Source: Gemmatimonadota bacterium (GTDB lineage Bacteria; JAAXHH01). Taken from it: DNA of 64,000 bases. The notes beneath the pieces were generated by a model that searched no databases, was not told where the DNA came from, and saw only the letters and a list, made by a program, of their open reading frames with translations. Positions within the stretch are counted from its first letter, which is position 1; each line of letters starts with the position of its first letter. The position numbers were made by a program, and so were the translations under genes. Shown piece after piece: positions 7,031-22,324 of the stretch. The stretch lies in assembly GCA_009841265.1 (NCBI GenBank), contig VXMB01000009.1:1725235-1789234 (forward strand). Reading direction: 5' to 3'.

Positions 7031-7609
7031 TCAGTTCGCCCCGATCAACAGCACGGCCGATACGCCGGCGGCCGCTCCCGATACGAAGAGGTTCCACTGC
7101 CGATGCGGCGTTCCCAGGATCCGCAGGATCACGAAGGCCACGGCCGCGAAGAGCGCCACGATCATCAACTGGCCCAGTTCCAGCCCTATATTGAAGGACA
7201 GGAGCGGCACGACGATCGATTCCTCCATGCCGAGCAGCGCCCTCAGGTAGTTCGAGAAACCCAGGCCGTGGATCAGGCCGAAGAAGAGGGCCAGTCCGTA
7301 GCTCGTCTTCCGGCCGATTTTCCCCTCGAACGGCCGGTACACGTTCATCAGGCAGGTCGCCAGGATCGTCACCGGAATGAGCGTCTCGACCAGATCCGTC
7401 GGGACCAGGATGAGGCGGAGCGTAGCCAGCGCCAGGGTGACCGAGTGCCCGACCGTGAAGGCCGTGACCAGCAGGAGCACCGAACGCCACCGGTTCAGCG
7501 GATAGGCGGCGCAGAGCGCGATGATGAAGACGATATGGTCGTAGGCGTTCAGGTCCGAAATATGGTCGAAACCGAGTTGCAGATATACCTGGAATTCGGA
7601 CATCGTCAT
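7031..7609 (-). CDS. HupE/UreJ family membrane protein
   Basis: LGFDHI, YDHIVF, TAFTVGHSVTL, FGLIHGLGF, FNIGLELGQL. Confidence 0.88.
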   Translation of the reverse strand: MTMSEFQVYLQLGFDHISDLNAYDHIVFIIALCAAYPLNRWRSVLLLVTAFTVGHSVTLALATLRLILVPTDLVETLIPVTILATCLMNVYRPFEGKIGRKTSYGLALFFGLIHGLGFSNYLRALLGMEESIVVPLLSFNIGLELGQLMIVALFAAVAFVILRILGTPHRQWNLFVSGAAAGVSAVLLIGAN

Positions 7610-8223
7610 GCCCCGAAACGAACCGTCCCCGTGACGGTTTTCTTGCTCAGGTTGACGTATTTCTTCTCGCCGCCGATTTCGAACCGCATCACGTTGGCCT
7701 GCGTGTCGAACATTTCGATCAGGATCCTGTTCTCGACCTCGATCGTCTCCACGCGGTCCACACCCGTAATCTGCACCAGGCAGGCCGTGGCGTCAAGTGC
7801 GTCCTCTATGCCGGCGTAGGTCAATTGCCGGTCTACGCCGTTGACTCGAAAGGCCAGCCGGGAGGCCAGATACTCGGCAACGTGCCGGTCTCGGTCGGCG
7901 TGGGCCTGGTCGGTCCAGAGCCTGAGCCGGGGGCCGCCCTTCGCCACGATGGCCTCTTCCAGGTCGTCCGTGAAGATCCGCACGGATATGTCGAGACGCG
8001 CATCGTCCGCGTTCCACTTGACCCGCGCTATGCTCACGTAGAACACGTGGGCTGGTGCCGCGGCGGAACTCGGGACAGCGGCAGGAGCCGCGGCCGGAAC
8101 CGCAGCCGGACTTGGTCCCGCGGCCGGAACCGCAGCCGGACCCGGACCCGCGGCCGGACCCGGGAAGGATGCGGCAAGGAACAACAGGCAAAGCAGGACC
8201 CCGAGCGTCTTCATCGCCACCAT
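7606..8223 (-). CDS. DUF6702-like exported protein with Pro/Ala repeat linker
   Basis: Signal peptide; HVFYVS...RIFTDDLE...Q.N pattern; 4-bp overlap with HupE/UreJ gene. Confidence 0.65.
   Translation of the reverse strand: MVAMKTLGVLLCLLFLAASFPGPAAGPGPAAVPAAGPSPAAVPAAAPAAVPSSAAAPAHVFYVSIARVKWNADDARLDISVRIFTDDLEEAIVAKGGPRLRLWTDQAHADRDRHVAEYLASRLAFRVNGVDRQLTYAGIEDALDATACLVQITGVDRVETIEVENRILIEMFDTQANVMRFEIGGEKKYVNLSKKTVTGTVRFGA
8088..8160. repeat. 30-bp-period coding repeat (AAGP/AVPAAGP linker)
   Basis: ccgcggccggaaccgcagccggac at 8088 and 8118 plus partial third copy. Confidence 0.8.
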
Positions 8224-8224
8224 C

Positions 8225-9751
8225 CTACTGGGCCATATCGTCCCGCAGGCCGTACTTATCGATCAGGTAGATCAACGTGGCGATGGACGCACCGCCCAGT
8301 TCCAGCTCCCGGCGGTTTACGGCTTCAAAGACGTCGGTGGGCGCGTGATGGTAGTCGAACGCCCGTTGCGAGTCGGGGTTGAACCCGATGGTCGGGGTAC
8401 CCGTCTCCCTGCGGAGCGGACCGATATCGGCGCCGCCGCCGCCCCTATTGATGTAGGAGATCGTGTTCTGGGGAAACAGGGGCAGCCACGACCGGAAGCG
8501 TTCAATGACGTCATCGTCCGCAGACACGCCGAATCCCCGGGGGCTGAATCCGCCCGCGTCGCTTTCGAGGGCGATCAGGTGATCCTCGCCCGTTTCCTTC
8601 GCCACCTCGGCGTACTTGAGACCGCCGCGGAGGCCGTTTTCCTCGTTCATGAACAGGACGGCCCGGATGGTGTGGCGGGGCCGGATGCCCAGCTTCTGGA
8701 AGGTCCGCAGCACGCCGATGGAATGGACCACGCCCGCGCCGTCGTCGTGGGCGCCTTCAGACACGTCCCACGAGTCGAGATGACCGCCCACCAGGATGAT
8801 CTCGTCCGGCCGTTCGCTGCCCCGGATCTCGCCGATCACGTTATGCGAAAGGGCGTCGGGGTGCCACTTGCTGTCCAGGCGCATGTAGAGCATGGCTTCG
8901 GGCTGCTCCTCGAGCGCCCGTTCCAGGCGGTCGGCGGACTGGTAGCCCAGGGCCGCCGCGGGGATGCGCTCCACGTCTTCGAGATAGCGCAGTCCGCCGG
9001 TGTGAGGCGCATCGCCGAAGTCCGAACCGGCCGACCGGATCACTACGCCCACGGCGCCGAACCTGGCCGCCTGGGACGGTCCGGCGGTCCGCTGGTCCAC
9101 CGCTCCGCCGTAGCCGGGGCCCGTGGCAATCACCGTCTGGTCGAAGCGCCGGTTGTAGAAGACGATCTTCCCTTCAACGGCCTCGCGGCCGAGTTCTTCC
9201 ACTTCTTCCAGGGAGTGGACTACCACGACGGGCGCCGTGAGCCCCACCGGAGCGGTCGGCACCGATCCCCCGATGGCCAGGGCGGTCAGCTCGATCATGC
9301 CTTCGTTGACGTTGACGATCCGCACCTGCTCCGGTTCGCCCCGTTCCCAGTGGGGCACCATGACTTCCTGCAGGTAGACCCGGTCGAATCCGTAGCCTTC
9401 CATCACCTCTTTTGCCCATACTACGGCGCGTTCGGCGCCTTCCGAACCGCTGAGGCGCGGTCCGATATTCTTGCTCAGGTCTTCCAGGAGGTAGTACATC
9501 TCTCCGGAAGTCAGCCGTTCGCTGAAGATCGCGGTGACCGTTTTTTCGTCATCGGTCTGCCCGCGGGCCTCGCCCGGTAAGGCCGTCGAAAGGGCCAGTG
9601 AAAGCGTCACCGAAACGGCCAGCGAGAAGGACAGGGTGAGCATTGGGACGCGCGTCCTGAAGCTGCGTGGGCCGACGCGGTGCGGGCTGAAGCTGCGTGG
9701 GCCGACGCGGTGCGCGAGACCTGGCAGTGATCCGGTAATAGCGGACAGCAT
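8225..9751 (-). CDS. M28-family Zn peptidase (carboxypeptidase Q-like, PA domain), exported
   Basis: GPRLSGS, GGHLDSWD, GAHDDGAG, NEENGLRG, ESDAG, YHHAPTD; ATG 9751 preferred over 9790. Confidence 0.88.
   Translation of the reverse strand: MLSAITGSLPGLAHRVGPRSFSPHRVGPRSFRTRVPMLTLSFSLAVSVTLSLALSTALPGEARGQTDDEKTVTAIFSERLTSGEMYYLLEDLSKNIGPRLSGSEGAERAVVWAKEVMEGYGFDRVYLQEVMVPHWERGEPEQVRIVNVNEGMIELTALAIGGSVPTAPVGLTAPVVVVHSLEEVEELGREAVEGKIVFYNRRFDQTVIATGPGYGGAVDQRTAGPSQAARFGAVGVVIRSAGSDFGDAPHTGGLRYLEDVERIPAAALGYQSADRLERALEEQPEAMLYMRLDSKWHPDALSHNVIGEIRGSERPDEIILVGGHLDSWDVSEGAHDDGAGVVHSIGVLRTFQKLGIRPRHTIRAVLFMNEENGLRGGLKYAEVAKETGEDHLIALESDAGGFSPRGFGVSADDDVIERFRSWLPLFPQNTISYINRGGGGADIGPLRRETGTPTIGFNPDSQRAFDYHHAPTDVFEAVNRRELELGGASIATLIYLIDKYGLRDDMAQ
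9657..9714. repeat. Two-copy 30-bp-period repeat in M28 N-terminal extension
   Basis: ctgaagctgcgtgggccgacgcggtgcg at 9657 and 9687 (HRVGPRSF x2). Confidence 0.85.
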
Positions 9752-9865
9752 GTAGACCTCCGTGTTGATATGGAAAGGGACCGCCCCCACCCATGGCCGG
9801 GCGGCCTTGCTTGATTTAAATTGTTTGATACGAACTGATTGATTCGAAGCGTTCAGTGCAGACGA

Positions 9866-11377: not shown

Positions 11378-13657
11378 TCAAAGATCGAACAGGTAGGCCG
11401 GCTTGACGATCAAGGTACGATCCAGCGGGTCGCCGAGCAGGGCTTCCGTGGCGTCCCCGTTGTCGCGCCGCTCGTTGTACACGACGTAGACGTTGCTGCC
11501 CGGACTGATGATGTAGTTGAACCGGAAATTCGACACGAACCGGTCCTGGTTCGTATCCCACTGTACCAGCGCGTTGAGGGACACATCGGGCGAGAAGGAA
11601 TAGCTGGTCCGGACGCCGAACAGATGGGCCGTGACGTCCCGCTCCCTGTTTCCGTTATCGGTGAGCGTCACGTCGTTGAGCTCGTACCGAGGACCGATGG
11701 TGAATTTCGAACCGGCGCGCAGTCCGCCCTCGAGATTCAGCGAACGCCGGTTCCCATTGATGTACTGGCCGAGGATGAGCTGGAAATCGCCGAATACGGG
11801 CTTGCTCAGGTTCGTCGTGTAATGCATGCGCGAAGACGCGTCCGTGTAGTTTCCCGCGGGGAGCTTGATGCCCAGAATCGGGCGGGTGCTTTCACTGATC
11901 CTGCGGTAGGCGCGGTCCAAAGTGATCCCGGCCTGCTCGCCGCCGGTGAAGAACAGCTCCCAGTGGTAGTGCTCCCGCCGGGTCAGCTGCGTGCCGTCGT
12001 CGCCGAATGTGGCGGACAGCACGATATGGGGGAAGTACCGGCGGACGATGCTGTGGGTGGGTTCGGGCGTGAAGAACGCACGAGCCGAGACCTCGTGGAA
12101 TCCGCCGAAATTACGGGCCAGGCTCCGGCGGCTGAAGAAGCCCATGCCGGGATTGAAGAACTCGGACACGCCCATGTACAGGCCCTCGAACTGCCAGAGT
12201 GGACCGTTCCAGCGCGACCACAGCCGTCCCGCGAAGCCCGATTCGCTTTCCTCGCCTGCCTGGTAAGTGGTTCCGGCCAGGAACCCGCTGACGGCCAGCT
12301 TGGGACCGATGGCCAGGTTCAAGTCGCCGCCGACCGCCCGGTTGTAGTCGCCGCCGCCGACCCGCTGGTTAGTGACGATGAAACCCACGTTGGATTTCTC
12401 ACCCACGTCCTGGCTGATCCGCGCCACGGCGTAGATGTTGTCCTCGAGCTTGGTTTCGCCGAACCGCTCGTCGCCCGTGCGCATGAGCAGCAGGCCCAGG
12501 TTCGTGCGTCCGGCCTTGCCCGTCAGGCGGCCGCCGCCGGTGATCGGCACCTGCCTCAGCGCGCCGGTATTATCGCGCGCCAGGCCGACGTTGCGGCTGT
12601 AGAAGAGTTCCGTCTCCCGGGCCACGCCGAAGCGGAACAGTCCGCCGTTCTCCAGGAAGAAGGCACGTTTTTCGGGGAAGAACAGGTTGAACTGCGTAAG
12701 GTTGACCTGCGCGTCGTCCACTTCCACCTGGGAGAAGTCCGTGTTGTAGGTCAGGTCGAGGGACAGGTTGTTGGTCAGGCCGTACTTCACGTCCACCCCG
12801 CCGTCGAAGTCTTCGTCCCGCGTCGAAGGGCCGGGCTCGTAGGTCCACGTGGCCCCGCCCAGGGAGTACGGCGTAACCTGCAGGTAACGGTGGTCGTGCC
12901 GCGTGAGGTTCATGCCCGACAGCGTGCCGGCCACCGACACCTGGGAGATGTTAAAGGGACGGATGACGGGCGCCCAGAAGGACTGTTCGTTGCGGCGGCG
13001 GATCTGGCGCTCCAGGTTGATCCCGAAATCGACGTCGTCCCCGGTCTCGAAGCGCAGCGTGCTCCAGGGAATGGCCATCTCGGCGTACCACCCCTCTTCG
13101 TTCCGGGAGGTGTATACGTCCCACACGCCGTTCCAGTCCGTCAGGATGTTGGTATTGAAGCGGCCTTCCGAACGGCCCTCGTTGCGCACCTGGGCGTCAT
13201 AGCGGGCGCCGTCCGGGTTGGTGGCGAAGAGAATGCCGTTCTGCCGGTCCATGAACGTGTCCAGGATGATCTGGAAGTAGTCGTCGTCCGCCAGGTCGCC
13301 GTCCCGCGCCATCTGGGTGGCAATGATCTGGGAGGGGTCCGAGTCGTAGGCCCAGACGCCGATGTACATCGTCTGCTCATCGTAGAGGACCCGCACCTCG
13401 GTCCGCTCGGACGCCGGCTGGCCTTCGTCGGGGCGTTGCTGGGTGAAGCCGCTGGCGGCCAGAGCGTTCTGCCAAATATCCTCGTCCAGGACGCCGTCCA
13501 TGTGCAACGCTTCCAGAATGCGCAGCGGGACGATCTCCCGCCCCTGTGCCGACACGGAGCCAGCGGTCAGCATGGTCTGCATAGCCAGAAGGGCGGCCAG
13601 CAGGACAGCGAAGCAGAAGGGGGGCAATGTGTGCGGGGATGTACAAACACGGTACAT
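11378..13657 (-). CDS. DUF5916-type protein (CBM9-like N-domain + outer-membrane beta-barrel)
   Basis: DGVLDE, WYAEMAIPW, LDLTYNTDFSQVEVD, FFPEKRAFFLE, FYSR; ends in aromatic C-terminus. Confidence 0.8.
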   Translation of the reverse strand: MYRVCTSPHTLPPFCFAVLLAALLAMQTMLTAGSVSAQGREIVPLRILEALHMDGVLDEDIWQNALAASGFTQQRPDEGQPASERTEVRVLYDEQTMYIGVWAYDSDPSQIIATQMARDGDLADDDYFQIILDTFMDRQNGILFATNPDGARYDAQVRNEGRSEGRFNTNILTDWNGVWDVYTSRNEEGWYAEMAIPWSTLRFETGDDVDFGINLERQIRRRNEQSFWAPVIRPFNISQVSVAGTLSGMNLTRHDHRYLQVTPYSLGGATWTYEPGPSTRDEDFDGGVDVKYGLTNNLSLDLTYNTDFSQVEVDDAQVNLTQFNLFFPEKRAFFLENGGLFRFGVARETELFYSRNVGLARDNTGALRQVPITGGGRLTGKAGRTNLGLLLMRTGDERFGETKLEDNIYAVARISQDVGEKSNVGFIVTNQRVGGGDYNRAVGGDLNLAIGPKLAVSGFLAGTTYQAGEESESGFAGRLWSRWNGPLWQFEGLYMGVSEFFNPGMGFFSRRSLARNFGGFHEVSARAFFTPEPTHSIVRRYFPHIVLSATFGDDGTQLTRREHYHWELFFTGGEQAGITLDRAYRRISESTRPILGIKLPAGNYTDASSRMHYTTNLSKPVFGDFQLILGQYINGNRRSLNLEGGLRAGSKFTIGPRYELNDVTLTDNGNRERDVTAHLFGVRTSYSFSPDVSLNALVQWDTNQDRFVSNFRFNYIISPGSNVYVVYNERRDNGDATEALLGDPLDRTLIVKPAYLFDL

Positions 13658-13661
13658 CTTG

Positions 13662-16010
13662 CTATTCCTCCATGGGTTGCCCGAACGGCACGGACAGGCT
13701 GACTGTAATGTTCCGACCTGGATCGTCGGTAAAATAGCGGAACCGGCTCAGGTAGTCCCGGTAGCGCTTGTTGAACAGATTGTGTACGCCGAACTGCATG
13801 CGGACGGGCTGGTCGGCCACGGCCAGCTCCGCGTGAAGCGACACGTCGAAGAGGTTGTAGCCGGCTGGCGGATCCGCAAAGTCGATGCCTTCGGGATAAT
13901 CCTCCTGCCGCAGGACGAAGCGGCCTTCAAAACCAATCCCGGCTTCCAGCAGGCGCCCGGCGGTGGGCAGCCGGAACTCCAGGCCGGTGATCAACCGGGT
14001 GGGCGGCATCTGGTACAGGGGTTGGTTATCCACTGTGTTTCGTCCACGGACGATCGAGGCGGAAATGTAGGTACCCACGTACCGTGTCAGTTCGTACTCC
14101 AGGTATCCGTCCAATCCCTGGATCACCGCGTCCGACTGGACATAGGTAAATTTGGGGAACGCACCCCGAATTGTCAACACAAGATCGCCCGCCGGCAGCA
14201 GCGAGATGAAGTTCCGGTAACTCGATCTGAAGAACCCCAGTTCGCCGTGGCCCCGGTCCCCCCTGTACCTCAGGGTGAGATCCGTGTTCACGCTCGATTC
14301 CGTGTCCAGTTCCTTGTCTCCGATCTCGAACTGCGCCGTACCGTGATGAACGCCATAGCTGTACAACTCGTTCACCCCGGGTGGACGCCAGGCCCTCCCG
14401 ATGTTGGCGGCGACGGCCAGGGCCGGGGTCAACTCGCGGATCAGGCCGACAACCCCGGTCACGTTGCGGTAGGTGAAGATCCCTCCCTCGACAATCTCGG
14501 TGGCGCGCCGGCCTTCGTTCGAGTAGACCTCCGCCCAGCGGTAGTCGTACCGCAGGCCTGTTTCTACCGTAGTCTTTCCCTTCGTCCAGGATTCCAGGGC
14601 GAATACGCCGGAACTGTAGGCCTGGAAGTCGGGAATGAGGAATCCCGTGCTGAACCGCTCGTTCCGCTGACGCATGCCGCTGGCGCCGATCTTTCCGTAC
14701 CAGTTACCGAAGTTCCGGTGGTGGAAGATCACTTCGCCGCTGTGGGTCTGCAATCCAAGATCGAACCCGGGGCGTGTGGGTGCGGCGCCGCTCCGGGTGG
14801 CGTCCCACTCCTCGCGCCGGTTGTATTGCTGTCCGTACCGCAGTTCGAGATTGCCCATCCCCTCGAAACGTACCAGGGATCGAACGGACAAGAGATCGTG
14901 GTCCACCCGTTGGCGCGGATTGCCGATATCGTAGGTAAATTCGCCCGTGAACAGTGGGTCGCCCCGCTCGATGGCCCGTTTCAGGTCCGTGGTGTTACCG
15001 ATGTGCGCGCCTTTGTAGATCCCCAGCCAGGTTCCGAAATGACTGAAATATGCCTCCGTGTCCATCCGGTCGGTCGTATAACCCAGTGCCACGGAGTAAT
15101 TGCGTTCGTCGAATCCGGAATTGCGTATGACGTGCTTCGGCGCCCGGGCGTCGCCCGCCCGGCGAAGACTCCCCTGCACCCGCCACTTGAGTCCGGGCAG
15201 GCGGTGAAGCGCTCCCTGCAGGAGGAGGGAAGCCGCCCCCTGCTTGTTGTTGGAAAAGAGATTCGTGTTGAGCCGGCCACCCACCCCTGGTTCCACGGGC
15301 AGCTCCGGCGGTTCGACGCGGATGACGCCGCCGATGGCGCCGACGCCGTACTGCACGCCGGCGGCGCCCTTGAGCACCTCGATGCGGGCCGGGGAAAAAG
15401 GATCGATCTCCGGGGCGTGGTCTCCGCCCCACTGCTGTCCTTCCTGGGTAACACCGGCGTTGAGTACCAGCACCCGGGCGCTATGCACTCCGCGCACCAC
15501 GGGCTTCGAGATGGCGGGGCCCGTGGTCAGGGTGGATACGCCCGGCAGGGACTCCAGCGTCTCACCCAGCGTCTGGCCCCGGCGTTCTTCCAGTGCGGAC
15601 AGGGGCAGGACGAGAACGGACTGGCTGGATCCGGTGAGTTCGCCCGCAAGGTCCCGGTCGCCCGTGACGGTGACCTCATCACCCATCAGGATCTCCGGCT
15701 CCATGCTGACTTCGAGCACGGGAGACCTGTTTTCGGTAACGTGTATCTCGCTTTGGACCGTCCGGTAGCCGATAAACCGGAATTCGATCGTGTGGCGGCC
15801 CTGTGGTACGTTTTCGAGACGGAATACGCCTTCTTCGTCTGTAAATGTACCGATTTCGAGCACGGGCAAAACTACGGTCACCGCCGGCAACGGTTCGCCG
15901 CGCTCACTGAGCACCTTGCCGCTCACTGTGGCGGCCCGTGCCGCTGCCGGAAGTACAAGGAAGAACACGGCGATCGCCAGGATGGCGCACCGTACATTCG
16001 TTGCTTTCAT
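13662..16010 (-). CDS. TonB-dependent receptor, cassette copy 1 (likely metal uptake)
   Basis: Signal peptide, CarboxypepD-like domain, plug (QQWGGDHAPEID, IEVLKG), NLFNKRYRDYLSRFRYF C-terminus; ATG 16010 aligns with copy 2. Confidence 0.92.
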   Translation of the reverse strand: MKATNVRCAILAIAVFFLVLPAAARAATVSGKVLSERGEPLPAVTVVLPVLEIGTFTDEEGVFRLENVPQGRHTIEFRFIGYRTVQSEIHVTENRSPVLEVSMEPEILMGDEVTVTGDRDLAGELTGSSQSVLVLPLSALEERRGQTLGETLESLPGVSTLTTGPAISKPVVRGVHSARVLVLNAGVTQEGQQWGGDHAPEIDPFSPARIEVLKGAAGVQYGVGAIGGVIRVEPPELPVEPGVGGRLNTNLFSNNKQGAASLLLQGALHRLPGLKWRVQGSLRRAGDARAPKHVIRNSGFDERNYSVALGYTTDRMDTEAYFSHFGTWLGIYKGAHIGNTTDLKRAIERGDPLFTGEFTYDIGNPRQRVDHDLLSVRSLVRFEGMGNLELRYGQQYNRREEWDATRSGAAPTRPGFDLGLQTHSGEVIFHHRNFGNWYGKIGASGMRQRNERFSTGFLIPDFQAYSSGVFALESWTKGKTTVETGLRYDYRWAEVYSNEGRRATEIVEGGIFTYRNVTGVVGLIRELTPALAVAANIGRAWRPPGVNELYSYGVHHGTAQFEIGDKELDTESSVNTDLTLRYRGDRGHGELGFFRSSYRNFISLLPAGDLVLTIRGAFPKFTYVQSDAVIQGLDGYLEYELTRYVGTYISASIVRGRNTVDNQPLYQMPPTRLITGLEFRLPTAGRLLEAGIGFEGRFVLRQEDYPEGIDFADPPAGYNLFDVSLHAELAVADQPVRMQFGVHNLFNKRYRDYLSRFRYFTDDPGRNITVSLSVPFGQPMEE

Positions 16011-16050
16011 CAGGAAATACTCCAAGCTCGCATTGACGGGAAAAGGCCGC

Positions 16051-16088
16051 GGCCGTGTCCGGGCTGCGAATTGGACACGGCCGTGTCC
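16051..16088 (-). promoter_or_regulatory. 10-bp stem hairpin between lipoprotein and TBDR copy 1
   Basis: ggccgtgtcc (16051-60) pairs with ggacacggcc (16073-82); followed on minus strand by gcggcc-tttt. Confidence 0.45.
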
Positions 16089-16091
16089 GTA

Positions 16092-16751
16092 CTATGACCG
16101 CACTTCCACTTCGAAGGTCACTTCGATATCCGTCTCATCACTCGGCGTCACGCCGTCCTTGGGTCCGGCATCGTAATGACTCTGAGAGACCCGGAACTGA
16201 CCGTTCCGTGCGTTAGACGGGACCGTAAGCGTGAATTTGAGTCCGACGGGATGATCAGCGCCCGTGTTCGTCACGTAGTCGGATTCCTTGTCCGCGTAGG
16301 CGACGGTGGCCGGTGCAAATCCCCCGAGGGTTTCAAAGAACAGCTGGTGGACTTCGGCTTCCTCCCTGATCTCTTCGGTGATATCCTCCGGCGGGCTTTC
16401 CAACTCGTTCAACTCCTGTATCATGCCGTCGTAAACTGTACCCGCGTCCACGACGATTCTGTCCACGACCGGTGCGTTGCCGCCTTCACCGTCGAGGTCC
16501 TGGAACTGCACGGTGAGCGGAGATCCCCCGCCCTGGGGCGTAAGCGTGATCTTGAGCGTCGTGATGAGCTCTACTTCACCCGGTCCGTGGCCATGATCGT
16601 CGTCGTGATCGTCGTGGTCATCGTCATGTGCGTCCGGCTCGTCCGGACCCATTGGATTGGAGTCATTGTCGTCTGCGCAGGAAAACGTCAGCGCGGCAGC
16701 CAACATCGCGGCGGTCATTACGGACAGTAAGTTCCATCGGAATTTCAACAT
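16092..16751 (-). CDS. His/Asp-rich lipoprotein, cassette copy 1
   Basis: Lipobox LTFS-C, acidic ADDND, HDDDHDDDHDDDHGHG tract, conserved ELITTL...DLDGEGGN...EAEVHQLFF core. Confidence 0.85.
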   Translation of the reverse strand: MLKFRWNLLSVMTAAMLAAALTFSCADDNDSNPMGPDEPDAHDDDHDDHDDDHGHGPGEVELITTLKITLTPQGGGSPLTVQFQDLDGEGGNAPVVDRIVVDAGTVYDGMIQELNELESPPEDITEEIREEAEVHQLFFETLGGFAPATVAYADKESDYVTNTGADHPVGLKFTLTVPSNARNGQFRVSQSHYDAGPKDGVTPSDETDIEVTFEVEVRS

Positions 16752-17040
16752 TTTCGGCTTCTCTTCCTTTGCTGAGTTGCGTCAAGTACGTGAGCTGCTT
16801 CTTCGATCGTAAACTGATCCTTCAGTGCCTGGAACTCGGCATCTCGATGTTCCAATCTCTCGACTTCGATAAAAGGCCCCTACGGCCATCGTGCGCGTGC
16901 ATCGACCCGGCTGATCCCGGTGCTGCTCGCACGGCGAAGCGCGTGAGCAGGTTCCGCGATCGGCGGATCTGCGCCGGTCCAGATTACCCGCACCGAGACT
17001 GCAGGTTCCGTTACGGACATCGGTGCTGACCGATGCGAGT

Positions 17041-17132
17041 GAACGGCCCGAACGGTCTGAACGGTCTGGACGGACCGAACGGTCTGAACGGTCTGGACGG
17101 TCTGGACGGTCTGGAAGACCTGGAGGTCTGGA
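17041..17132. repeat. Tandem array of nine 9-bp units (G(A/G)ACGGTCT consensus) in cassette-1 leader
   Basis: gaacggccc gaacggtct gaacggtct ggacggacc gaacggtct gaacggtct ggacggtct ggacggtct ggaagacct. Confidence 0.9.
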
Positions 17133-17216
17133 TTTACAAGCCAGCGATGTCCGGCATGGGTCAAGGTCCGCGCCTGATGGATTCAGGCGTTCGTCCGGAG
17201 CATCCGGGCTAGCAGG

Positions 17217-17486
17217 TCAGGGAAGGGGCGGTGCGCGGTTTCTGTGCTGCTTAACCTGAATTCGAGGGTGACCGGGCTGCGATACACCGGCCGCAAAGCC
17301 GACGATATCGTAGTCCGGGAGGGTAGGAGATGCATGCTCAAGCACCGCGGTGAACGCGGCGGCGCCAAGGCAGAACTGGCAGTGTTCCACATGCCCGGCT
17401 TCGGTCTCCAGCTCATCGCAGTCGTGCGGGGGATGCGCAAAATACACGGCAAACGCGACGGCGAAGGATAGCGTGAGGAGTTTCAT
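17217..17486 (-). CDS. DUF2946-like leader ORF with HCxxC and C-terminal RAPP, copy 1
   Basis: 89 aa; hydrophobic N-terminus, HCQFC (35-39), NRAPPLP end; conserved paralog at 20988. Confidence 0.85.
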   Translation of the reverse strand: MKLLTLSFAVAFAVYFAHPPHDCDELETEAGHVEHCQFCLGAAAFTAVLEHASPTLPDYDIVGFAAGVSQPGHPRIQVKQHRNRAPPLP

Positions 17487-17558
17487 GGGAGACCCGACAC
17501 CAAGTGGCTTGATCTATCAAAGAAATGGAACTGTTTCAACGAAATACCAGTCGCGCGA

Positions 17559-17586
17559 ATTAAAACGGTGAGCGCTGGCTTGTCAA
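17559..17586 (-). promoter_or_regulatory. Putative promoter of cassette 1
   Basis: Perfect TTGACA (17586-17581) followed by TTTAAT/TTAATT at 16-17 bp. Confidence 0.4.
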
Positions 17587-17593
17587 TCGGTTT

Positions 17594-19942
17594 CTATTCT
17601 GACATGGCCTGTCCGAAGGGTATGGACATGCCGAAAGTGACGTTGCGGCCCGGATTGTCGATGTAGTACCTGAAACGGCTCAGGTAGTCCCGGTACCGCT
17701 GGTTGAACAGGTTGCGAACGCCGAACTGCACGCGCACGGGCTGGTCGGCCACGGCTATTTCAGCGTGCAGGTCCAGGTCGAAGAGCTCGTAGCCGGCCGG
17801 CGGGTCCGCATAGTCGATGCCTTCGGGAAAGTTGTCCTGCCTCAAGACGAAACGGCCTTCGAACCCAATCCCGGCGTCGAGGAGCCGCCCGCCGGTGGGC
17901 AGGTGGAAACTCAAGCCGGCGATGAACCGGGTGGCCGGCATCTGGTACAGGGGCTGGCGTTCCACCGTATTTCGTCCCCGGACGAACGAAGCGGACAAAT
18001 GGGTGTCGATGTGCGGCGTCAGTTCGTATTCCAGGTACCCGTCGAATCCCTGGATCACCGCGTCGGACTGGACGTAGGTGAATTTGGGAAATGCGCCCCT
18101 GATGGTTAAGACGAGATCGTCCGCCGGCAACAGGGAGATGTAGTTGCTGTATTGGGAACGGAAAAGCCCCAGTTCGCCGCGGCCCCGGTCCCCCTGGTAC
18201 CGCAAGGTCAGGTCCGTGTTCAGGCTCGATTCCGTGCCCAGTTCCTTGTCCCCGATCTCGAACTGCGCGGTGCCGTGGTGGACGCCGTGGCTGTACAATT
18301 CGTTCACCCCTGGCGGCCGCCAGGCCCGGCCGACGTTGGCGGCGACGGCCGTGTTCGGCGTCAACTCGTAGATCAGGCCGAGCACACCGGTCATGTTGCT
18401 GTAGGTGAAAACGCCGCCATCCACGATCTCGGTGGCGCGGCGACCCGTGTTCGAGTAGATCTCCATCCACCGGTAGTCGTAACGCAGTCCGGTCTCCACC
18501 GTCGTTTTTCCCTTCGTCCAGGACTCCAGGGCGAACACGCCGGCACTGTAGGCCAGAAAGTCGGGAATCAGGAAACCGGTACTGAAGCGCTTGTTCTCCT
18601 GGCGCATGCCGCTGACGCCGACTTTTCCGTACCAGTTTCCGAAGTTGCGGTGCTGGAAGATCGCGTCGCCGCTGTGGGTCTGTAGCCCCTGGGAGAAGCC
18701 GGGTCTGGCCACCCCGCCGCTCCTGGCGTGGGAGTCCCATTCCTCCCGCCGGTTGTATTGTTGTCCGTACCGGAGTTCGAGATTGCCCTTCCCTTCAATA
18801 CGTACAAGAGATCGAACGGAAAGGAGATCGTGGTCCACCCGCTGGCACGGATTATCGATTTCGTAGGTGAAGGAGCCCACGATGGTCGGCTCGCCGCGCT
18901 CGATGGACCTTCGCAGGTCCGTGGTGTTGCCGATGTGGGCCCCTTTGAAGATCCCGATCCAGGTACCGAAATGGCTGAAGTAGGCTTCGGTGTCCACGCG
19001 GTCCGACGTATAGCCCAGCGCCATCGAATAGTCCCGCTCGTCGAACCCGGAATTCCGTATGACGTGGACCGGCGCGTGGGCGTCGCCCGCCCGGCGCAGG
19101 CTACCCTGGACCCTCCACTTGAGTCCCCCAAGCTGCCGCAGAGCGCCCTGCAGGAGCAGAGAGCCCGCGCCTTGCCGGTTGTTGGAGAAGAGGTTCGTGT
19201 TGATCCGGCCGCCCATGCCCGGCCTCGTGGGCAGTTCCGGCGGTTCGATGCGGATGACGCCGCCGATGGCGCCGGCGCCGTATTGCACGCCGGCGGCGCC
19301 CTTGAGCACCTCGATGCGGGCCGGGGAAAAGGGATCGATCTCCGGGGCGTGGTCTCCGCCCCACTGCTGTCCTTCCTGGGTAATGCCGGCGTTGAGTACC
19401 AGCACCCGGGCGCTGTGGACGCCTCGCAGCACAGGTTTCGATACGGCCGGCCCCGTAGTCAGGGAGGTTACGCCTGGCAGGGATTCCAGTGTCTCGCCCA
19501 CCGTCTGTCCCCGCCGCTCTTCCAGGTCGGAGAGGGGGAGGACGAGGACGGACTGGCTGGACCCGGTGAGTTCGCCCGCCAGGTCCCGGTCGCCGGTGAC
19601 GGTGACCTCCTCGCCGAGCAGCGCCTCAGGCTGCATGCTGACTTCAAGCACCTTCGGCTCGGTTTCGGAGACGACCACCTCGCTTCGGATCGTTCGGTAA
19701 CCGACGAACCGGAACTCGATCGTGTGCCTGCCCACCGGCACGTTCTCCAGGCGAAACCGGCCTTCCTCGTCGGAGAACGCTCCGATCTCGAGATCGGGCA
19801 GGATAACGGTCACCGCCGGCAGTGGCTCTCCAGTCTCGTTCAGCACCTTTCCGCTCACCGTGGCGGCATGCGCTTCGACCGGAAGTACCAGACAGGACAC
19901 GGCTATCGCCAGTATGACGCTCAGGGTTTTCGTTGCATTCAT
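17594..19942 (-). CDS. TonB-dependent receptor, cassette copy 2
   Basis: Close paralog of 13662-16010 with long identical peptide blocks; ATG 19942 (MNATKTL). Confidence 0.92.
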   Translation of the reverse strand: MNATKTLSVILAIAVSCLVLPVEAHAATVSGKVLNETGEPLPAVTVILPDLEIGAFSDEEGRFRLENVPVGRHTIEFRFVGYRTIRSEVVVSETEPKVLEVSMQPEALLGEEVTVTGDRDLAGELTGSSQSVLVLPLSDLEERRGQTVGETLESLPGVTSLTTGPAVSKPVLRGVHSARVLVLNAGITQEGQQWGGDHAPEIDPFSPARIEVLKGAAGVQYGAGAIGGVIRIEPPELPTRPGMGGRINTNLFSNNRQGAGSLLLQGALRQLGGLKWRVQGSLRRAGDAHAPVHVIRNSGFDERDYSMALGYTSDRVDTEAYFSHFGTWIGIFKGAHIGNTTDLRRSIERGEPTIVGSFTYEIDNPCQRVDHDLLSVRSLVRIEGKGNLELRYGQQYNRREEWDSHARSGGVARPGFSQGLQTHSGDAIFQHRNFGNWYGKVGVSGMRQENKRFSTGFLIPDFLAYSAGVFALESWTKGKTTVETGLRYDYRWMEIYSNTGRRATEIVDGGVFTYSNMTGVLGLIYELTPNTAVAANVGRAWRPPGVNELYSHGVHHGTAQFEIGDKELGTESSLNTDLTLRYQGDRGRGELGLFRSQYSNYISLLPADDLVLTIRGAFPKFTYVQSDAVIQGFDGYLEYELTPHIDTHLSASFVRGRNTVERQPLYQMPATRFIAGLSFHLPTGGRLLDAGIGFEGRFVLRQDNFPEGIDYADPPAGYELFDLDLHAEIAVADQPVRVQFGVRNLFNQRYRDYLSRFRYYIDNPGRNVTFGMSIPFGQAMSE

Positions 19943-20039
19943 GGGAAACCCTCTGGCGCGCGATTCCACGAACAGATCACTCTGCAAGCAACTCACACTG
20001 CATTAAGACTACTTAACGTGTTAAATGCTACCAGACGTA

Positions 20040-20690
20040 TTAACGCACGAGGACTTCGAAGGTCACGTCGATGTCCGTCTCGTCGCTCTGGTTCACGCCG
20101 TCCTTGGGTGCTTCATCAAAGTGACTCAGAATGATGCGTAACTGGCCGTTCTGCGCGTTGTCCGGCACGGAAAGGGTAAACGCGAGGCCAACGGGATGGT
20201 CCGCTCCCGAATTCGACACGTAATCGGATTCCTTGTCCGCATACTCGACGGTAGCCGCTGAGAATCCCCCGAGGGTCTCAAAGAAGAACTGGTGGGCCTC
20301 AGCTTCCTCTTCCACCTCCTCGGTGATGTTCTCCGGCGGGGTTTCGGTCTCGTTCAATACCTCGACCATACCGTTGTAATCCGTTCCGGAAGTTACGGCC
20401 AGCACGTCCACGACCGGCTCGTTGCCGCCTTCACCGTCCAGGTCACGGAATCGCACGGTTATCGGCGATCCTCCGCCACTGGGCGTAAGGGTGATCGCAA
20501 GCGTCGTGATGAGTTCTTCTTCGCCCGGTCCGTGGTCGTGGTCGTCGTCATGGTCGTCTTCCTCATGTTCTTCCGGATCGGAAGGACCGGTGGGACTGTC
20601 GTCGTCATCGGCGCAGCCGAACGTCAACGCGGCGGAGACGAATACGGCGGCGGTCAGGATGGTCAGTACGTTCCAGTGATGCCTGAACAT
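20040..20690 (-). CDS. His/Asp-rich lipoprotein, cassette copy 2
   Basis: Lipobox LTFG-C, ADDDD, HEEDDHDDDHDHG tract; paralog of 16092-16751. Confidence 0.85.
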   Translation of the reverse strand: MFRHHWNVLTILTAAVFVSAALTFGCADDDDSPTGPSDPEEHEEDDHDDDHDHGPGEEELITTLAITLTPSGGGSPITVRFRDLDGEGGNEPVVDVLAVTSGTDYNGMVEVLNETETPPENITEEVEEEAEAHQFFFETLGGFSAATVEYADKESDYVSNSGADHPVGLAFTLSVPDNAQNGQLRIILSHFDEAPKDGVNQSDETDIDVTFEVLVR

Positions 20691-20987
20691 ATCGAGCTTC
20701 TCCTCAATGTGTTGCGTAGCGTGGGTTGAATTGATGCTGCTGTGTGAATCAAACGGCTATTGCGACTATGCACTTGCCAACGGTCTCGATCCGGGCCGGC
20801 GTCAGGACCGGTGCGACCATGATCGGTGCTACCTCGACCGGGATCAGCGCGGCCAGCGACGTGACCGTCTTCAAATCCTATGCCGAGCCGGTGAACGGCC
20901 TGGACGAAATGAATCGGTTAAGTTTGTTATGGTCGCGGACCGTGCCGAGTGGATTTGGCGATCGGCCGGAGCCTGCGGAGTGTCAGG

Positions 20988-21257
20988 TCAGGGAAGAGGC
21001 GGTGCGCGGTTGAGGTGCTGCGCGTTACGTGTCTGGGGGTACCCGGTTTCAGGCGCGCCGGCCACGAAGCCGACCAACGCGTGGTCCGGGGGCGAATCAG
21101 GCGAATCTTCTAGCACCGCGGAGGATGCGGCACCTAAAAGACACCCCTGGCAGTGGTCTGCATTCGCGGCGTCCGATTCCAGTCCATGACAGTGATGCGG
21201 CGGACTGGTGAATAGAAAGGCGAATACCAGGACGAAAGAGAGCGTAAGCAATTTCAT
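20988..21257 (-). CDS. DUF2946-like leader ORF with HCxxC and C-terminal RAPP, copy 2
   Basis: 89 aa from ATG 21257: MKLLTLSF...PPHHC...HCQGC...NRAPPLP. Confidence 0.85.
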   Translation of the reverse strand: MKLLTLSFVLVFAFLFTSPPHHCHGLESDAANADHCQGCLLGAASSAVLEDSPDSPPDHALVGFVAGAPETGYPQTRNAQHLNRAPPLP

Positions 21258-21335
21258 GCCGGACTCGTCACGCGGAAAACGGACCCATCGAATATGGTGC
21301 AATTTTCGAGATTTTTAGCTTGTTTCAGTCACGTA

Positions 21336-21364
21336 ATATTGCGCCAATTCAGCCGATTTGTCAA
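21336..21364 (-). promoter_or_regulatory. Putative promoter of cassette 2 with overlapping near-palindrome CGTAATATTGCG (21331-21342)
   Basis: TTGACA (21364-21359), 17 bp, CAATAT. Confidence 0.45.
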
Positions 21365-21393
21365 GTGATTTCGCGCCTTCGCACAATACGGAC

Positions 21394-21422
21394 TTGACAC
21401 GGACAGGGCCCCTTGTTATTAT
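21394..21422 (+). promoter_or_regulatory. Near-consensus sigma70 promoter of ABC operon
   Basis: TTGACA-17 bp-TATTAT with TGn extension. Confidence 0.65.
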
Positions 21423-21514
21423 CCGACGCCGCGAAAAAAGCAACGCGAAAAATGCGCGGACATCTGCTTTTAAACGCAAGAAAAGGAGCGAGAACAGGGG
21501 TGTCCGGGAAAACC

Positions 21515-22324
21515 ATGATCGAAGCGAAGGACCTATGCAAGTACTACGGTTCCTTCGTCGCCGTGCAAGACATCTCCTTTACCATACCCGAGGGCCAGAT
21601 CGTGGCCTTCCTCGGACCGAACGGCGCGGGCAAGTCCACGACGATGAAGATCCTCAGCGGCTACCTGGGCGCCAGCGCGGGCACCGCGGCCATCGCCGGA
21701 CTCGACGTGAGACGGGACCGCCTCTCCATGTCAAGGCGTCTTGGATACCTCCCGGAGAACGGTCCGCTGTACCAGAACATGACACCGCTGGAACTCCTGC
21801 GGTTCTTCGGCGAGGCCCGTGGTCTCGATCGACTCCGGCTGTCCGAGCGCCTGGATTACGTCATCGACCGGTGCAGCCTCCACGAAGCGCTCGAAAAACC
21901 CATCGACAAGCTTTCCCGGGGCAACAAGCAGCGGGTCGGTCTGGCGCAGGCCCTGCTCCACGACCCCGATGTGCTCATCATGGACGAACCGACCGCCGGG
22001 CTCGATCCCAACCAGATCCGGGACTTCCGCCAGGATATCCGGTTGCTCGGGCAGACCAGGACCATCCTGCTTTCCACCCACATCCTGCAGGAAGTGGACC
22101 TCATCGCCGACCGCGTTCTCCTGATCAACGAGGGCAGGATAGTCTTCGATGGCCCGCCTGCCGATCTGCGTCGCGGCGGATCGCTCGAAGCGTCTTTCCA
22201 CGCCCTTACCGGACACGAAGGGGAGGCGTCGAGTGGCGAGAGTGGCGTGAGTGGCGAGGCGGCGTCGAATGACGAAGCGGCGTCGGGTGGCGTGACCGGA
22301 CACGGCGAGGAGGCGGACGAATGA
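21515..22324 (+). CDS. ABC transporter ATP-binding protein (GldA-like)
   Basis: GPNGAGKST, LSRGNKQR, LIMDEPT, LSTH; low-complexity C-tail. Confidence 0.92.
   Translation: MIEAKDLCKYYGSFVAVQDISFTIPEGQIVAFLGPNGAGKSTTMKILSGYLGASAGTAAIAGLDVRRDRLSMSRRLGYLPENGPLYQNMTPLELLRFFGEARGLDRLRLSERLDYVIDRCSLHEALEKPIDKLSRGNKQRVGLAQALLHDPDVLIMDEPTAGLDPNQIRDFRQDIRLLGQTRTILLSTHILQEVDLIADRVLLINEGRIVFDGPPADLRRGGSLEASFHALTGHEGEASSGESGVSGEAASNDEAASGGVTGHGEEADE

Follow-up and report, generated by a model that had tools for sequence, protein, structure and literature searches.

What do two small paralogous genes do at the head of two neighbouring metal-uptake-like operons in an uncultured bacterium? The window, i.e. 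the whole stretch of 64,000 nucleotides (nt) analysed here, comes from contig VXMB01000009.1 of a Gemmatimonadota bacterium (assembly GCA_009841265.1), and it holds two open reading frames (ORFs) that each precede genes for a lipoprotein and a TonB-dependent receptor. An initial annotation, made from the letters alone, had read these ORFs as leader peptides like CruR (Bp2923) of Bordetella pertussis, the Pfam DUF2946 leader of the cruR-crtA(bfrG)-crpH operon (PMC9426467, PMC12914433, PMC12992588), with a metal-binding CxxC motif and a C-terminal RAPP arrest motif. The comparative evidence supports this core reading: a fixed distance between the two motifs, selection on RAPP, a promoter ahead of each ORF, a suitable leader, a Rho factor and a profile match to DUF2946 all point the same way. 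We consider it probable that both ORFs encode leader peptides of the CruR type, which would sense metal and act in cis.

Two paralogous putative leader peptides

Both ORFs exist where they were first reported and both encode 89 amino acids (aa). The strand had been omitted; it is the minus strand in both cases, and a plus-strand reading of the same coordinates gives many stop codons. The two genes are:

17217..17486, minus strand: leader peptide 1, 89 aa; hydrophobic N-terminus, PPHDCDE, HxxHCQFC at 32-39, 44-aa spacer, RAPP at 84-87, LP, stop
20988..21257, minus strand: leader peptide 2, 89 aa; hydrophobic N-terminus, PPHHCHG, HCQGC at 35-39, 44-aa spacer, RAPP at 84-87, LP, stop

BLASTP aligns the two peptides without gaps at 47 of 89 identical positions (53%, E 8e-33). 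All of the shared features listed in the initial annotation were recovered, i.e. MKLLTLSF at residues 1-8, PPHxC at 19-23, HCQxC at 35-39, VGFxAG at 62-67 and NRAPPLP at 83-89, with 44 residues between the second Cys and Arg84 in both. The identity runs past the coding sequence, as the stop codon and the four nucleotides after it (TGACCTG) are the same at the ends of both genes. The Shine-Dalgarno sequences of the peptide genes are weak or absent.

The N-terminus of the family is signal-like, with a conserved MK followed by about 15 hydrophobic residues, and residues 2-17 form a helix in the AlphaFold2 model. That model is otherwise poor (pLDDT 53, pTM 0.24), apart from this helix and a further one over the CxxC motif. 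The ligands upstream of the Cys pair distinguish two types of peptide: type 1 has PPHDCDE...HxxHC, and type 2 has PPHHCHG...(H/Q)C. Such differing ligand sets would be compatible with different tuning of the two leaders.

The combination of motifs is rare. Our scan of the genome covered 31,632 stop-to-stop frames of at least 60 aa, of which 14 terminate in RAPP plus 0-5 residues. Just three of the 14 also carry a CxxC motif 42-47 aa before RAPP: peptide 1, peptide 2 and one peptide on another contig. With only three such frames genome-wide, the CxxC...RAPP pair is far beyond chance.

The third peptide lies on the minus strand at C12:138563-138883 (L046:4764-5084, minus strand) and reads ...PHDHDHDEECVNGTCVPC, 46 aa, RAPPA, stop. 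It stands 139 nt upstream of an ABC-2 transporter operon that encodes an ATPase together with two permeases (ABC2_membrane_2/DUF3526); a MerC-like protein comes after the operon. By profile it has no detectable kinship to the window family (11%) or to DUF2946 (6%). The same leader design seems to serve another, probably export-type, metal operon here.

Profile searches recovered the peptide family, at one or two copies per genome, from 29 of 33 genomes in the GTDB phylum-level group to which the organism belongs. Among protein collections, 7 family members were identified among 9 matches in 1.84 billion representatives, and 31 clusters in a set of 5.8 billion. Family-bearing organisms are labelled in their source records as Gemmatimonadetes or Candidatus Latescibacterota metagenome-assembled genomes (MAGs). 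The other two of the 9 matches, the repetitive proteins P0016 (801 aa, E 3e-15) and P0020 (208 aa, E 2.5e-4), match the peptide profile in several stretches, and look like low-complexity or repeat artefacts rather than family members.

A fixed distance between the CxxC and RAPP motifs

The survey of orthologues for conserved length that the initial annotation had proposed gave a clear answer. The second Cys and the Arg of R[A/S]PP are separated by 44 residues in 42 of the 44 family members, and by 43 in the other two. The sequence in between is nearly free, with identity as low as 2% between distant members and below 20% in 192 of 861 pairs. Changes in length are confined to the stretches before CxxC and after RAPP. 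The motifs at either end are well kept: [H/Q]CxxC occurs in nearly all members (there are three single-Cys variants), and in 35 of 39 members the chain ends 1-3 residues after R[A/S]PP. One locus (L012:1501-1809, plus strand) has lost the usual stop codon and carries a 15-residue tail after RAPP (…RAPPLSRPILPVRMLRTNA), with the motif and the 44-aa spacing intact.

This amounts to a natural experiment on a molecular ruler, as the distance from ligand to arrest motif has been held over 44 members with an almost unconstrained spacer. It supports the idea that the ligand site must hold a fixed position relative to the exit tunnel of a stalled ribosome. In CruR the spacer is 45 residues, constant to within 1-2 residues in the family, and the insertion of five residues breaks regulation (PMC9426467).

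Selection on the arrest motif is also evident. The RAPP residues are invariant across orthologues except for Ser in place of Ala, and RSPP is a substitution that permits arrest (PMC12992588). The codons used for these residues vary freely, including all four CGN codons for Arg, four for Ala and all four for Pro. Because the codons vary synonymously and the residues are fixed, selection acts on the translated peptide. For the segment from CxxC to RAPP the ratio of nonsynonymous to synonymous substitution rates (dN/dS) is about 0.47.

Are these simply spurious ORFs? GC-rich genomes contain many, and dozens appear in the ORF list of the window. Conservation in 29 of 33 genomes, the dN/dS value, the synonymous variation at invariant residues and the genome-wide count of three among 31,632 frames all speak against chance or non-functional ORFs; conservation already refutes that explanation and we give it practically no credence.

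A more serious question is whether the peptide is itself the product, i.e. a small protein that is exported, remains stable and binds metal, for instance a chaperone in the periplasm or a secreted protein metallophore caught by the lipoprotein and the receptor, in which RAPP would be incidental or would only slow translation. The signal-like N-terminus, the several conserved Cys/His ligands and the strict co-occurrence with an uptake receptor and a surface lipoprotein would all suit such a protein. Yet a binding domain would be expected to conserve its sequence, and the 44-aa segment keeps its length with identity down to 2%, in a peptide whose AlphaFold2 model is largely disordered. Moreover, ordinary proteins strongly avoid tetrapeptides like RAPP, and those that do occur are concentrated at the C-terminal ends of small leader ORFs (PMC12992588); neither the long non-coding gap to the next gene nor the faint or missing Shine-Dalgarno signal fits a gene for a stable product. 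We regard the exported-protein explanation as quite improbable.

Probable kinship with DUF2946

The search against DUF2946 that the initial annotation suggested does not place the peptides within the family as Pfam defines it. Peptide 1 scores 18.2 bits (E 0.0043) against PF11162, below the gathering threshold of 23.7 bits, with residues 27-87 aligned to positions 55-117 of the 117-position model. Peptide 2 has no match at all in the Pfam search. A six-frame search of the genome with the DUF2946 model gives 16.5 bits, again below the cut-off.

The wider family tells a more favourable story. DUF2946 is the most frequent Pfam match of its members at E<=10 (11 of 13 close members and 9 of 19 diverse ones), and the top family in 11 of the 13 close members. 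The best E-value of a member is 1.3e-4, and all scores shown are sub-threshold. A comparison of profiles used six true DUF2946 proteins, namely Cupriavidus metallidurans and Ralstonia megaplasmid genes and Paraburkholderia homologues, which likewise carry H-CxxC, along with RAPP at the C-terminus. With hhalign, the family profile aligns to these six over 58 columns, from CxxC to RAPP, at a probability of 80.8% (E 1.3e-5), and control profiles that were reversed or column-shuffled reach at most 1.7%. On this sequence comparison, a distant homology between the window peptides and CruR/DUF2946 is probable.

Cassette organization and conservation

Read on the minus strand, the region is composed of two tandem cassettes, each with the order peptide, long gap, lipoprotein and TonB-dependent receptor. 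The features of cassette 2, in the order of transcription, are followed by those of cassette 1:

21335..21364, minus strand: promoter-like sequence TTGACA-18-AATATT of cassette 2, some 80-105 nt ahead of peptide 2; 10 of 12 consensus matches (scan)
20881..21060, minus strand: region of the cassette 2 mRNA richer in C than in G (C>G bubble), a candidate rut (Rho-loading) region; C 0.38-0.47, G 0.19-0.23; spans ~70 nt at the ORF's end and ~100 nt at the leader's start
20691..20987, minus strand: untranslated 297-nt leader of cassette 2, separating peptide 2 from lipoprotein 2
20040..20690, minus strand: lipoprotein 2, 216 aa; lipobox ...TFGC, His/Asp/Glu-rich tract, conserved beta-sandwich domain of ~150 aa
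17594..19996, minus strand: TonB-dependent receptor 2, 800 aa; CarboxypepD_reg, Plug and barrel domains (Pfam)
17559..17586, minus strand: promoter-like site of cassette 1, TTGACA-16-TTTAAT, beginning 8 nt past the stop of receptor 2; read from the sequence
16752..17216, minus strand: untranslated leader of cassette 1, 465 nt; C>G in its 5' half; holds a 9-nt tandem array
16092..16751, minus strand: lipoprotein 1, 219 aa; paralogue of lipoprotein 2, 69% identical
13662..16025, minus strand: TonB-dependent receptor 1, 787 aa (Pfam, NCBIfam)
11378..13657, minus strand: CBM9-like/DUF5916 protein, 759 aa (Pfam); start 4 nt past receptor 1

The promoter and rut assignments are consensus and composition arguments. 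The consensus scan omits the cassette 1 site, whose second hexamer is without an A at position 2; the site aligns with a conserved CTTGACA box. Nearly all of 37 aligned related loci, distant ones included, carry this box roughly 100 nt ahead of the peptide's start codon, which indicates that each peptide gene heads its own transcription unit.

The paralogous parts of the two cassettes have diverged to very different degrees. The receptors are 81% identical, the lipoproteins 69% and the leader peptides 53%, and the gaps are essentially unalignable (29%). A tandem pair with the same flanks is found in two relatives (L003 and L004), so the duplication of the cassette is old.

The order of peptide, long gap, lipoprotein of ~200 aa and CarboxypepD_reg-Plug-barrel receptor of ~770 aa is kept in every relative examined. 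The module occurs in 29 of the 33 related genomes. It is also preserved in distant relatives with different neighbourhoods (L003, L004, L040, L042 and L044). From the peptide to the next start codon the gap is 190-590 nt in all of these relatives. In L003, L004 and the distant L040, too, the gene after the receptor encodes a DUF5916 protein. The CBM9-like/DUF5916 gene of the window therefore probably belongs to the uptake module, and it is probably the one that ends cassette 1.

The alignment of related loci revealed no Fur/Zur-type operator motif common to the promoters of the family. One divergent subgroup (L028-L030) has a perfect 6-1-6 palindrome, ACTTAT-C-ATAAGT, some 60-75 nt ahead of the peptide's start codon, where it overlaps the promoter's -10 region. 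This candidate operator of the Fur-family type is confined to the subgroup and is absent from both window promoters.

A few kb downstream of the cassettes, at 7031-9790 on the minus strand, are genes for an M28 peptidase, a DUF6702 protein and HupE/UreJ_2, and this synteny is kept in relatives. HupE/UreJ genes are reported to adjoin CutF-like leaders that have only His ligands (PMC9973294). We saw no small leader ORF ahead of the 7031-9790 cluster.

Leader RNA and Rho

If the peptides act in cis, what does the RNA behind them look like? A consistent feature is an excess of C over G that, in both cassettes, begins ~70 nt before the end of the ORF and runs ~100 nt into the gap. Among all 80-nt windows of the stretch, cassette 2 ranges from the 98th percentile to the 99.9th at its peak (C 0.47, G 0.20), and cassette 1 reaches the 98.6th. 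The bubble is present at the same place in 37 of 37 related loci, where the mean of C minus G is +0.20 from -60 to +20, +0.12 from +1 to +80, and about 0 further on. In cruR the rut site maps to the C>G region of its ORF. The genome encodes Rho (669 bits).

Other explanations of the leaders were considered and set aside. A search of 13000-22000 against Rfam gave no match at E<=1, and a riboswitch or other known RNA in the leaders was rejected on that basis. A conserved structure, a terminator or a stem that sequesters the ribosome-binding site was likewise rejected. The leaders show no excess folding energy (z-scores of 0.04 for cassette 2 and -0.81 for cassette 1), RNAalifold on 20 orthologous post-stop regions yields just three pairs at -1.4 kcal/mol with no covariation, and the scan for intrinsic terminator-like sites found none in either leader. 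A hidden gene was also rejected, as the leaders diverge much faster than the flanking genes and with many indels. They share 39-68% of positions with their orthologues (91% in the case of the near-identical L009 alone), and the flanking genes 63-99%; for cassette 2 alone, orthologous leaders are ~50% identical, again with many indels, and flanking genes 63-87%.

The cassette 1 leader also contains a tandem array of a 9-nt unit, (C/T)CAGACCGT, at 17040-17132 on the minus strand. It lies in the C-rich part of the leader, about 85 nt past the stop of peptide 1, and holds ~9-10 units; Tandem Repeats Finder reports a period of 9, ~9 copies and 82-84% matches. A degenerate version stands at the same place in some type-1 orthologues (L003, L004 and L009), and is absent from others and from cassette 2.

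These leaders bear directly on the sign of the proposed switch. In CutF of Rhodobacter capsulatus (PMC9973294; bioRxiv 10.1101/2025.02.05.636593) the response is positive. A switch of that type would involve co-translational export of the peptide, arrest induced by periplasmic metal on CxxC and a rise in downstream expression. The family does retain the N-terminal signal-like helix that is essential in CutF (same sources), and the two studied members of the broad family respond with opposite signs. But CutF melts a stem-loop that covers the next gene's ribosome-binding site, directly behind the stall, whereas here the next start lies 190-590 nt away in leaders without conserved structure. The motifs are the CxxC and RAPP of CruR, not the CxxxC and PPP of CutF, and the cargo is an uptake system, whose induction by plentiful metal would make little physiological sense. 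A positive switch is improbable, in our judgement. By analogy with cruR, the properties of the gap match those expected of a putative Rho-dependent attenuator, and they do not fit a CutF-type device.

Cargo and candidate metal

By solved structure the receptors are nearest to metal-ion transporters, and they are so from a distance. Of the NCBIfam models, the heme/ZnuD types fit best, all far below their cut-offs: ZnuD 108-130 bits (cut-off 950), TonB-copper 76 (472) and TonB-hemin 158-160 (317). The nearest solved structures are those of the TonB-dependent transporters (TBDTs) ZnuD (4rdr, E 4.5e-23) and then OprC (6fok, E 5e-13). CrtA, the copper receptor controlled by CruR and recently solved (PMC12914433), is not among the structure matches of the receptors. 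With no NCBIfam model passing its cut-off, we rejected the naming of a metal from the receptors.

The lipoproteins match no Pfam or NCBIfam family. In the AlphaFold2 model of lipoprotein 1, residues 61-219 form a beta-sandwich and the N-terminal 60 residues are disordered. Naming by fold was rejected too, as Foldseek against the PDB returns generic Ig-like sandwiches only, and none of the 50 matches listed exceeds a TM-score of 0.32. In the folded domain, H135, H192 and several Asp/Glu are among the residues that do not vary. The His/Asp/Glu-rich tract that precedes it (window 16580-16680 and 20520-20610, minus strand) is variable in length, is missing from L040 and L044, and is replaced by a (T)GPT repeat in L027 and L030. 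A tract that is variable or missing in relatives is better read as a variable linker than as a fixed metal site.

On these sequence matches the cassette appears to be an uptake module of the metal-ion type, with zinc and copper as the main candidates. The proposals of the initial annotation that the two switches are 'independently tuned' and may sense 'Zn, Ni or Co' are speculation; their sole hint is that the receptors are nearest to ZnuD.

The cargo also bears on whether the peptides monitor export or the thiol-redox state of the envelope, in the manner of SecM, VemP, ApdA or ApdP, with CxxC as a disulfide sensor. The classical RAPP peptides are indeed secretion monitors with N-terminal export signals (PMC7897499, PMC10951233), and CxxC is also a redox motif. 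What follows the peptides here is a receptor nearest to ZnuD and OprC and a His-rich lipoprotein, not a Sec, YidC or Dsb gene, and, as metal ligation would predict, His residues lie beside the two Cys (type 1: H32 and H35; type 2: HHCH). A redox or export monitor is thus very improbable.

Proposed mechanism

We infer the following mode of action from that of CruR, where copper relieves the RAPP-dependent arrest and Rho-dependent termination is coupled to it. The inference extends to the arrest itself, to the metal, to the direction of the response and to what Rho does; taken as a whole it is the likelier account. A sigma-70-like promoter would drive a transcript that starts with the leader ORF. 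The ribosome would arrest at RAPP, its P site holding Pro86 and its A site Pro87, which would place HCxxC 47-50 residues from the peptidyl-transferase centre, at or just beyond the tunnel mouth. The stalled ribosome would cover the C-rich, G-poor end of the ORF, and Rho would be kept from loading or from catching the polymerase. With Rho blocked, transcription could cross the 300-465 nt leader into the lipoprotein, receptor and DUF5916 genes. When metal is plentiful, it would bind the Cys/His ligands of the nascent chain and the arrest would be released. The ribosome would then terminate, Rho could load on the exposed C>G RNA and end transcription within the leader, and uptake would be switched off. 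The net outcome would be an uptake system repressed by its own metal.

Several observations support this mode: the fixed ruler, selection on RAPP, the operon-first position of the peptide, the promoter box, the C>G leader, Rho, and the likeness to the DUF2946 profile. It is further supported by leaders without conserved RNA structure, by receptors nearest to metal-ion TBDTs, and by a peptide that is predicted to be poorly structured, as CruR is. In CruR itself, arrest at RAPP has been demonstrated by toeprinting (PMC12992588).

A number of points weigh on the other side. Neither peptide qualifies as a Pfam DUF2946 protein, HMMER profile searches of the 1.84 billion and 5.8 billion proteins reach no DUF2946 protein, and none of the 31 clusters from the 5.8-billion indexed search carries PF11162. 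The likeness in CxxC and RAPP could come from convergence on two short motifs at a functional spacing. The C>G bubble is partly a by-product of the Pro, His, Gln and Arg codons at the C-terminus of the peptide; it does extend past the stop codon. The leaders are 2-3 times longer than the 162 nt of CruR, and the lipoprotein gene precedes the receptor gene. The receptors fall outside the CrtA/BfrG type and bear no more than a distant likeness to OprC, so that copper is a candidate only. Lastly, CutF, the other studied member of the family, has the opposite response sign (PMC9973294).

A further, more novel reading seems unlikely to us. In it, the peptides would form an independent RAPP-leader family, convergent with or extremely diverged from DUF2946, that responds to zinc or another non-copper metal. 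The family would control an undescribed metal-capture system in sponge/coral symbionts, in which a His-rich lipoprotein of the surface is joined by a ZnuD-like receptor and a DUF5916 protein. Each cassette would answer to its own metal or threshold by virtue of its ligand set, PPHDC...HxxHCxxC in one type and PPHHCH...(H/Q)CxxC in the other.

Comparison with known systems

The closest parallel is CruR. Like CruR, each peptide is encoded by a small, first-in-operon ORF with an N-terminal export-like helix, H-CxxC and a RAPP motif 2-3 residues from the C-terminus. The spacer is fixed (44 aa here, 45 in CruR), C exceeds G at the end of the ORF, a long untranslated gap precedes a TonB-dependent metal-uptake operon, the product is predicted to be poorly structured, and Rho is present in the genome. 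Unlike CruR, which has 145 aa and a 162-nt leader, the window peptides have 89 aa and leaders of 297-465 nt. Their cargo begins with a lipoprotein gene and includes no PepSY_TM gene, ZnuD stands closer to the receptor than CrtA or OprC do, and two cassettes lie in tandem. The peptides also fall below the DUF2946 cut-off, and HMMER does not connect the two families. The lineage differs as well: these are FCB-group organisms (MAGs labelled Latescibacterota or Gemmatimonadetes), absent from the published CruR list, which has no Gemmatimonadota, Bacteroidota or related taxa (PMC9426467). The later CutF-like survey does contain many Bacteroidota members (PMC9973294).

CutF belongs to a 'CutF-like' superfamily of 29 sequence clusters (PMC9973294; bioRxiv 10.1101/2025.02.05.636593). 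The 2023 survey of this superfamily counted 5,334 proteins from many phyla, with TonB-like neighbours and probable non-copper members (PMC9973294). The window peptides share with CutF a signal peptide, a metal site of Cys and His, a Pro-rich stalling motif at the C-terminus and a position upstream of metal-homeostasis genes. CutF's own features are CxxxC with PPP, a short gap and a stem-loop over the next ribosome-binding site, and copper induces its stall and turns a detoxifying oxidase on. Unlike in CutF, the motifs, the long unstructured gap and the uptake cargo of the window all fit the CruR mode.

ApdA, ApdP and the class of small upstream ORFs (uORFs) with RAPP or RGPP provide a third comparison. 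The likeness lies in the C-terminal RAPP of a small secretory or membrane protein encoded upstream of a regulated gene (PMC7897499, PMC10951233, PMC12992588). ApdA and ApdP stand upstream of Sec/YidC genes, monitor secretion and have no conserved CxxC at a fixed distance. Their hallmark, a protein-localisation gene downstream, is not seen here, where a lipoprotein and a TonB-dependent receptor follow. A 2025 survey found RAPP uORFs upstream of TonB-class genes throughout Gram-negative bacteria (PMC12992588).

For the receptors, the nearest solved relatives are ZnuD, the zinc TBDT of Neisseria, and OprC, the copper TBDT of Pseudomonas, both of which import metal ions. Unlike these, the window receptors have an N-terminal CarboxypepD_reg domain, are paired with a dedicated lipoprotein and score far below the family cut-offs.

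How much of this is new? The novelty implied by the initial annotation was overstated, since CutF/CruR-like leaders in many phyla, ahead of TonB-class genes, with long gaps and with non-copper ligands are already in the literature (PMC9426467, PMC9973294, PMC12992588). The concept, its spread across phyla and the link to TonB-dependent receptors are known, and no new mechanism is opened here. What the window adds to these systems is a compact 89-aa family outside the Pfam model and in a new lineage, a lipoprotein-first cargo with DUF5916, unusually long leaders, a tandem duplication and an exceptionally clean 44-residue ruler. The nascent-peptide metal switch of the CruR/CutF type would thereby be extended to an uncultured FCB-group lineage of marine-invertebrate symbionts. 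After the duplication the leader peptides (53%) have diverged much faster than the receptors (81%), and together with a dedicated lipoprotein and a ZnuD-like receptor this makes the tandem cassettes a testable case of how such a switch may be retuned.

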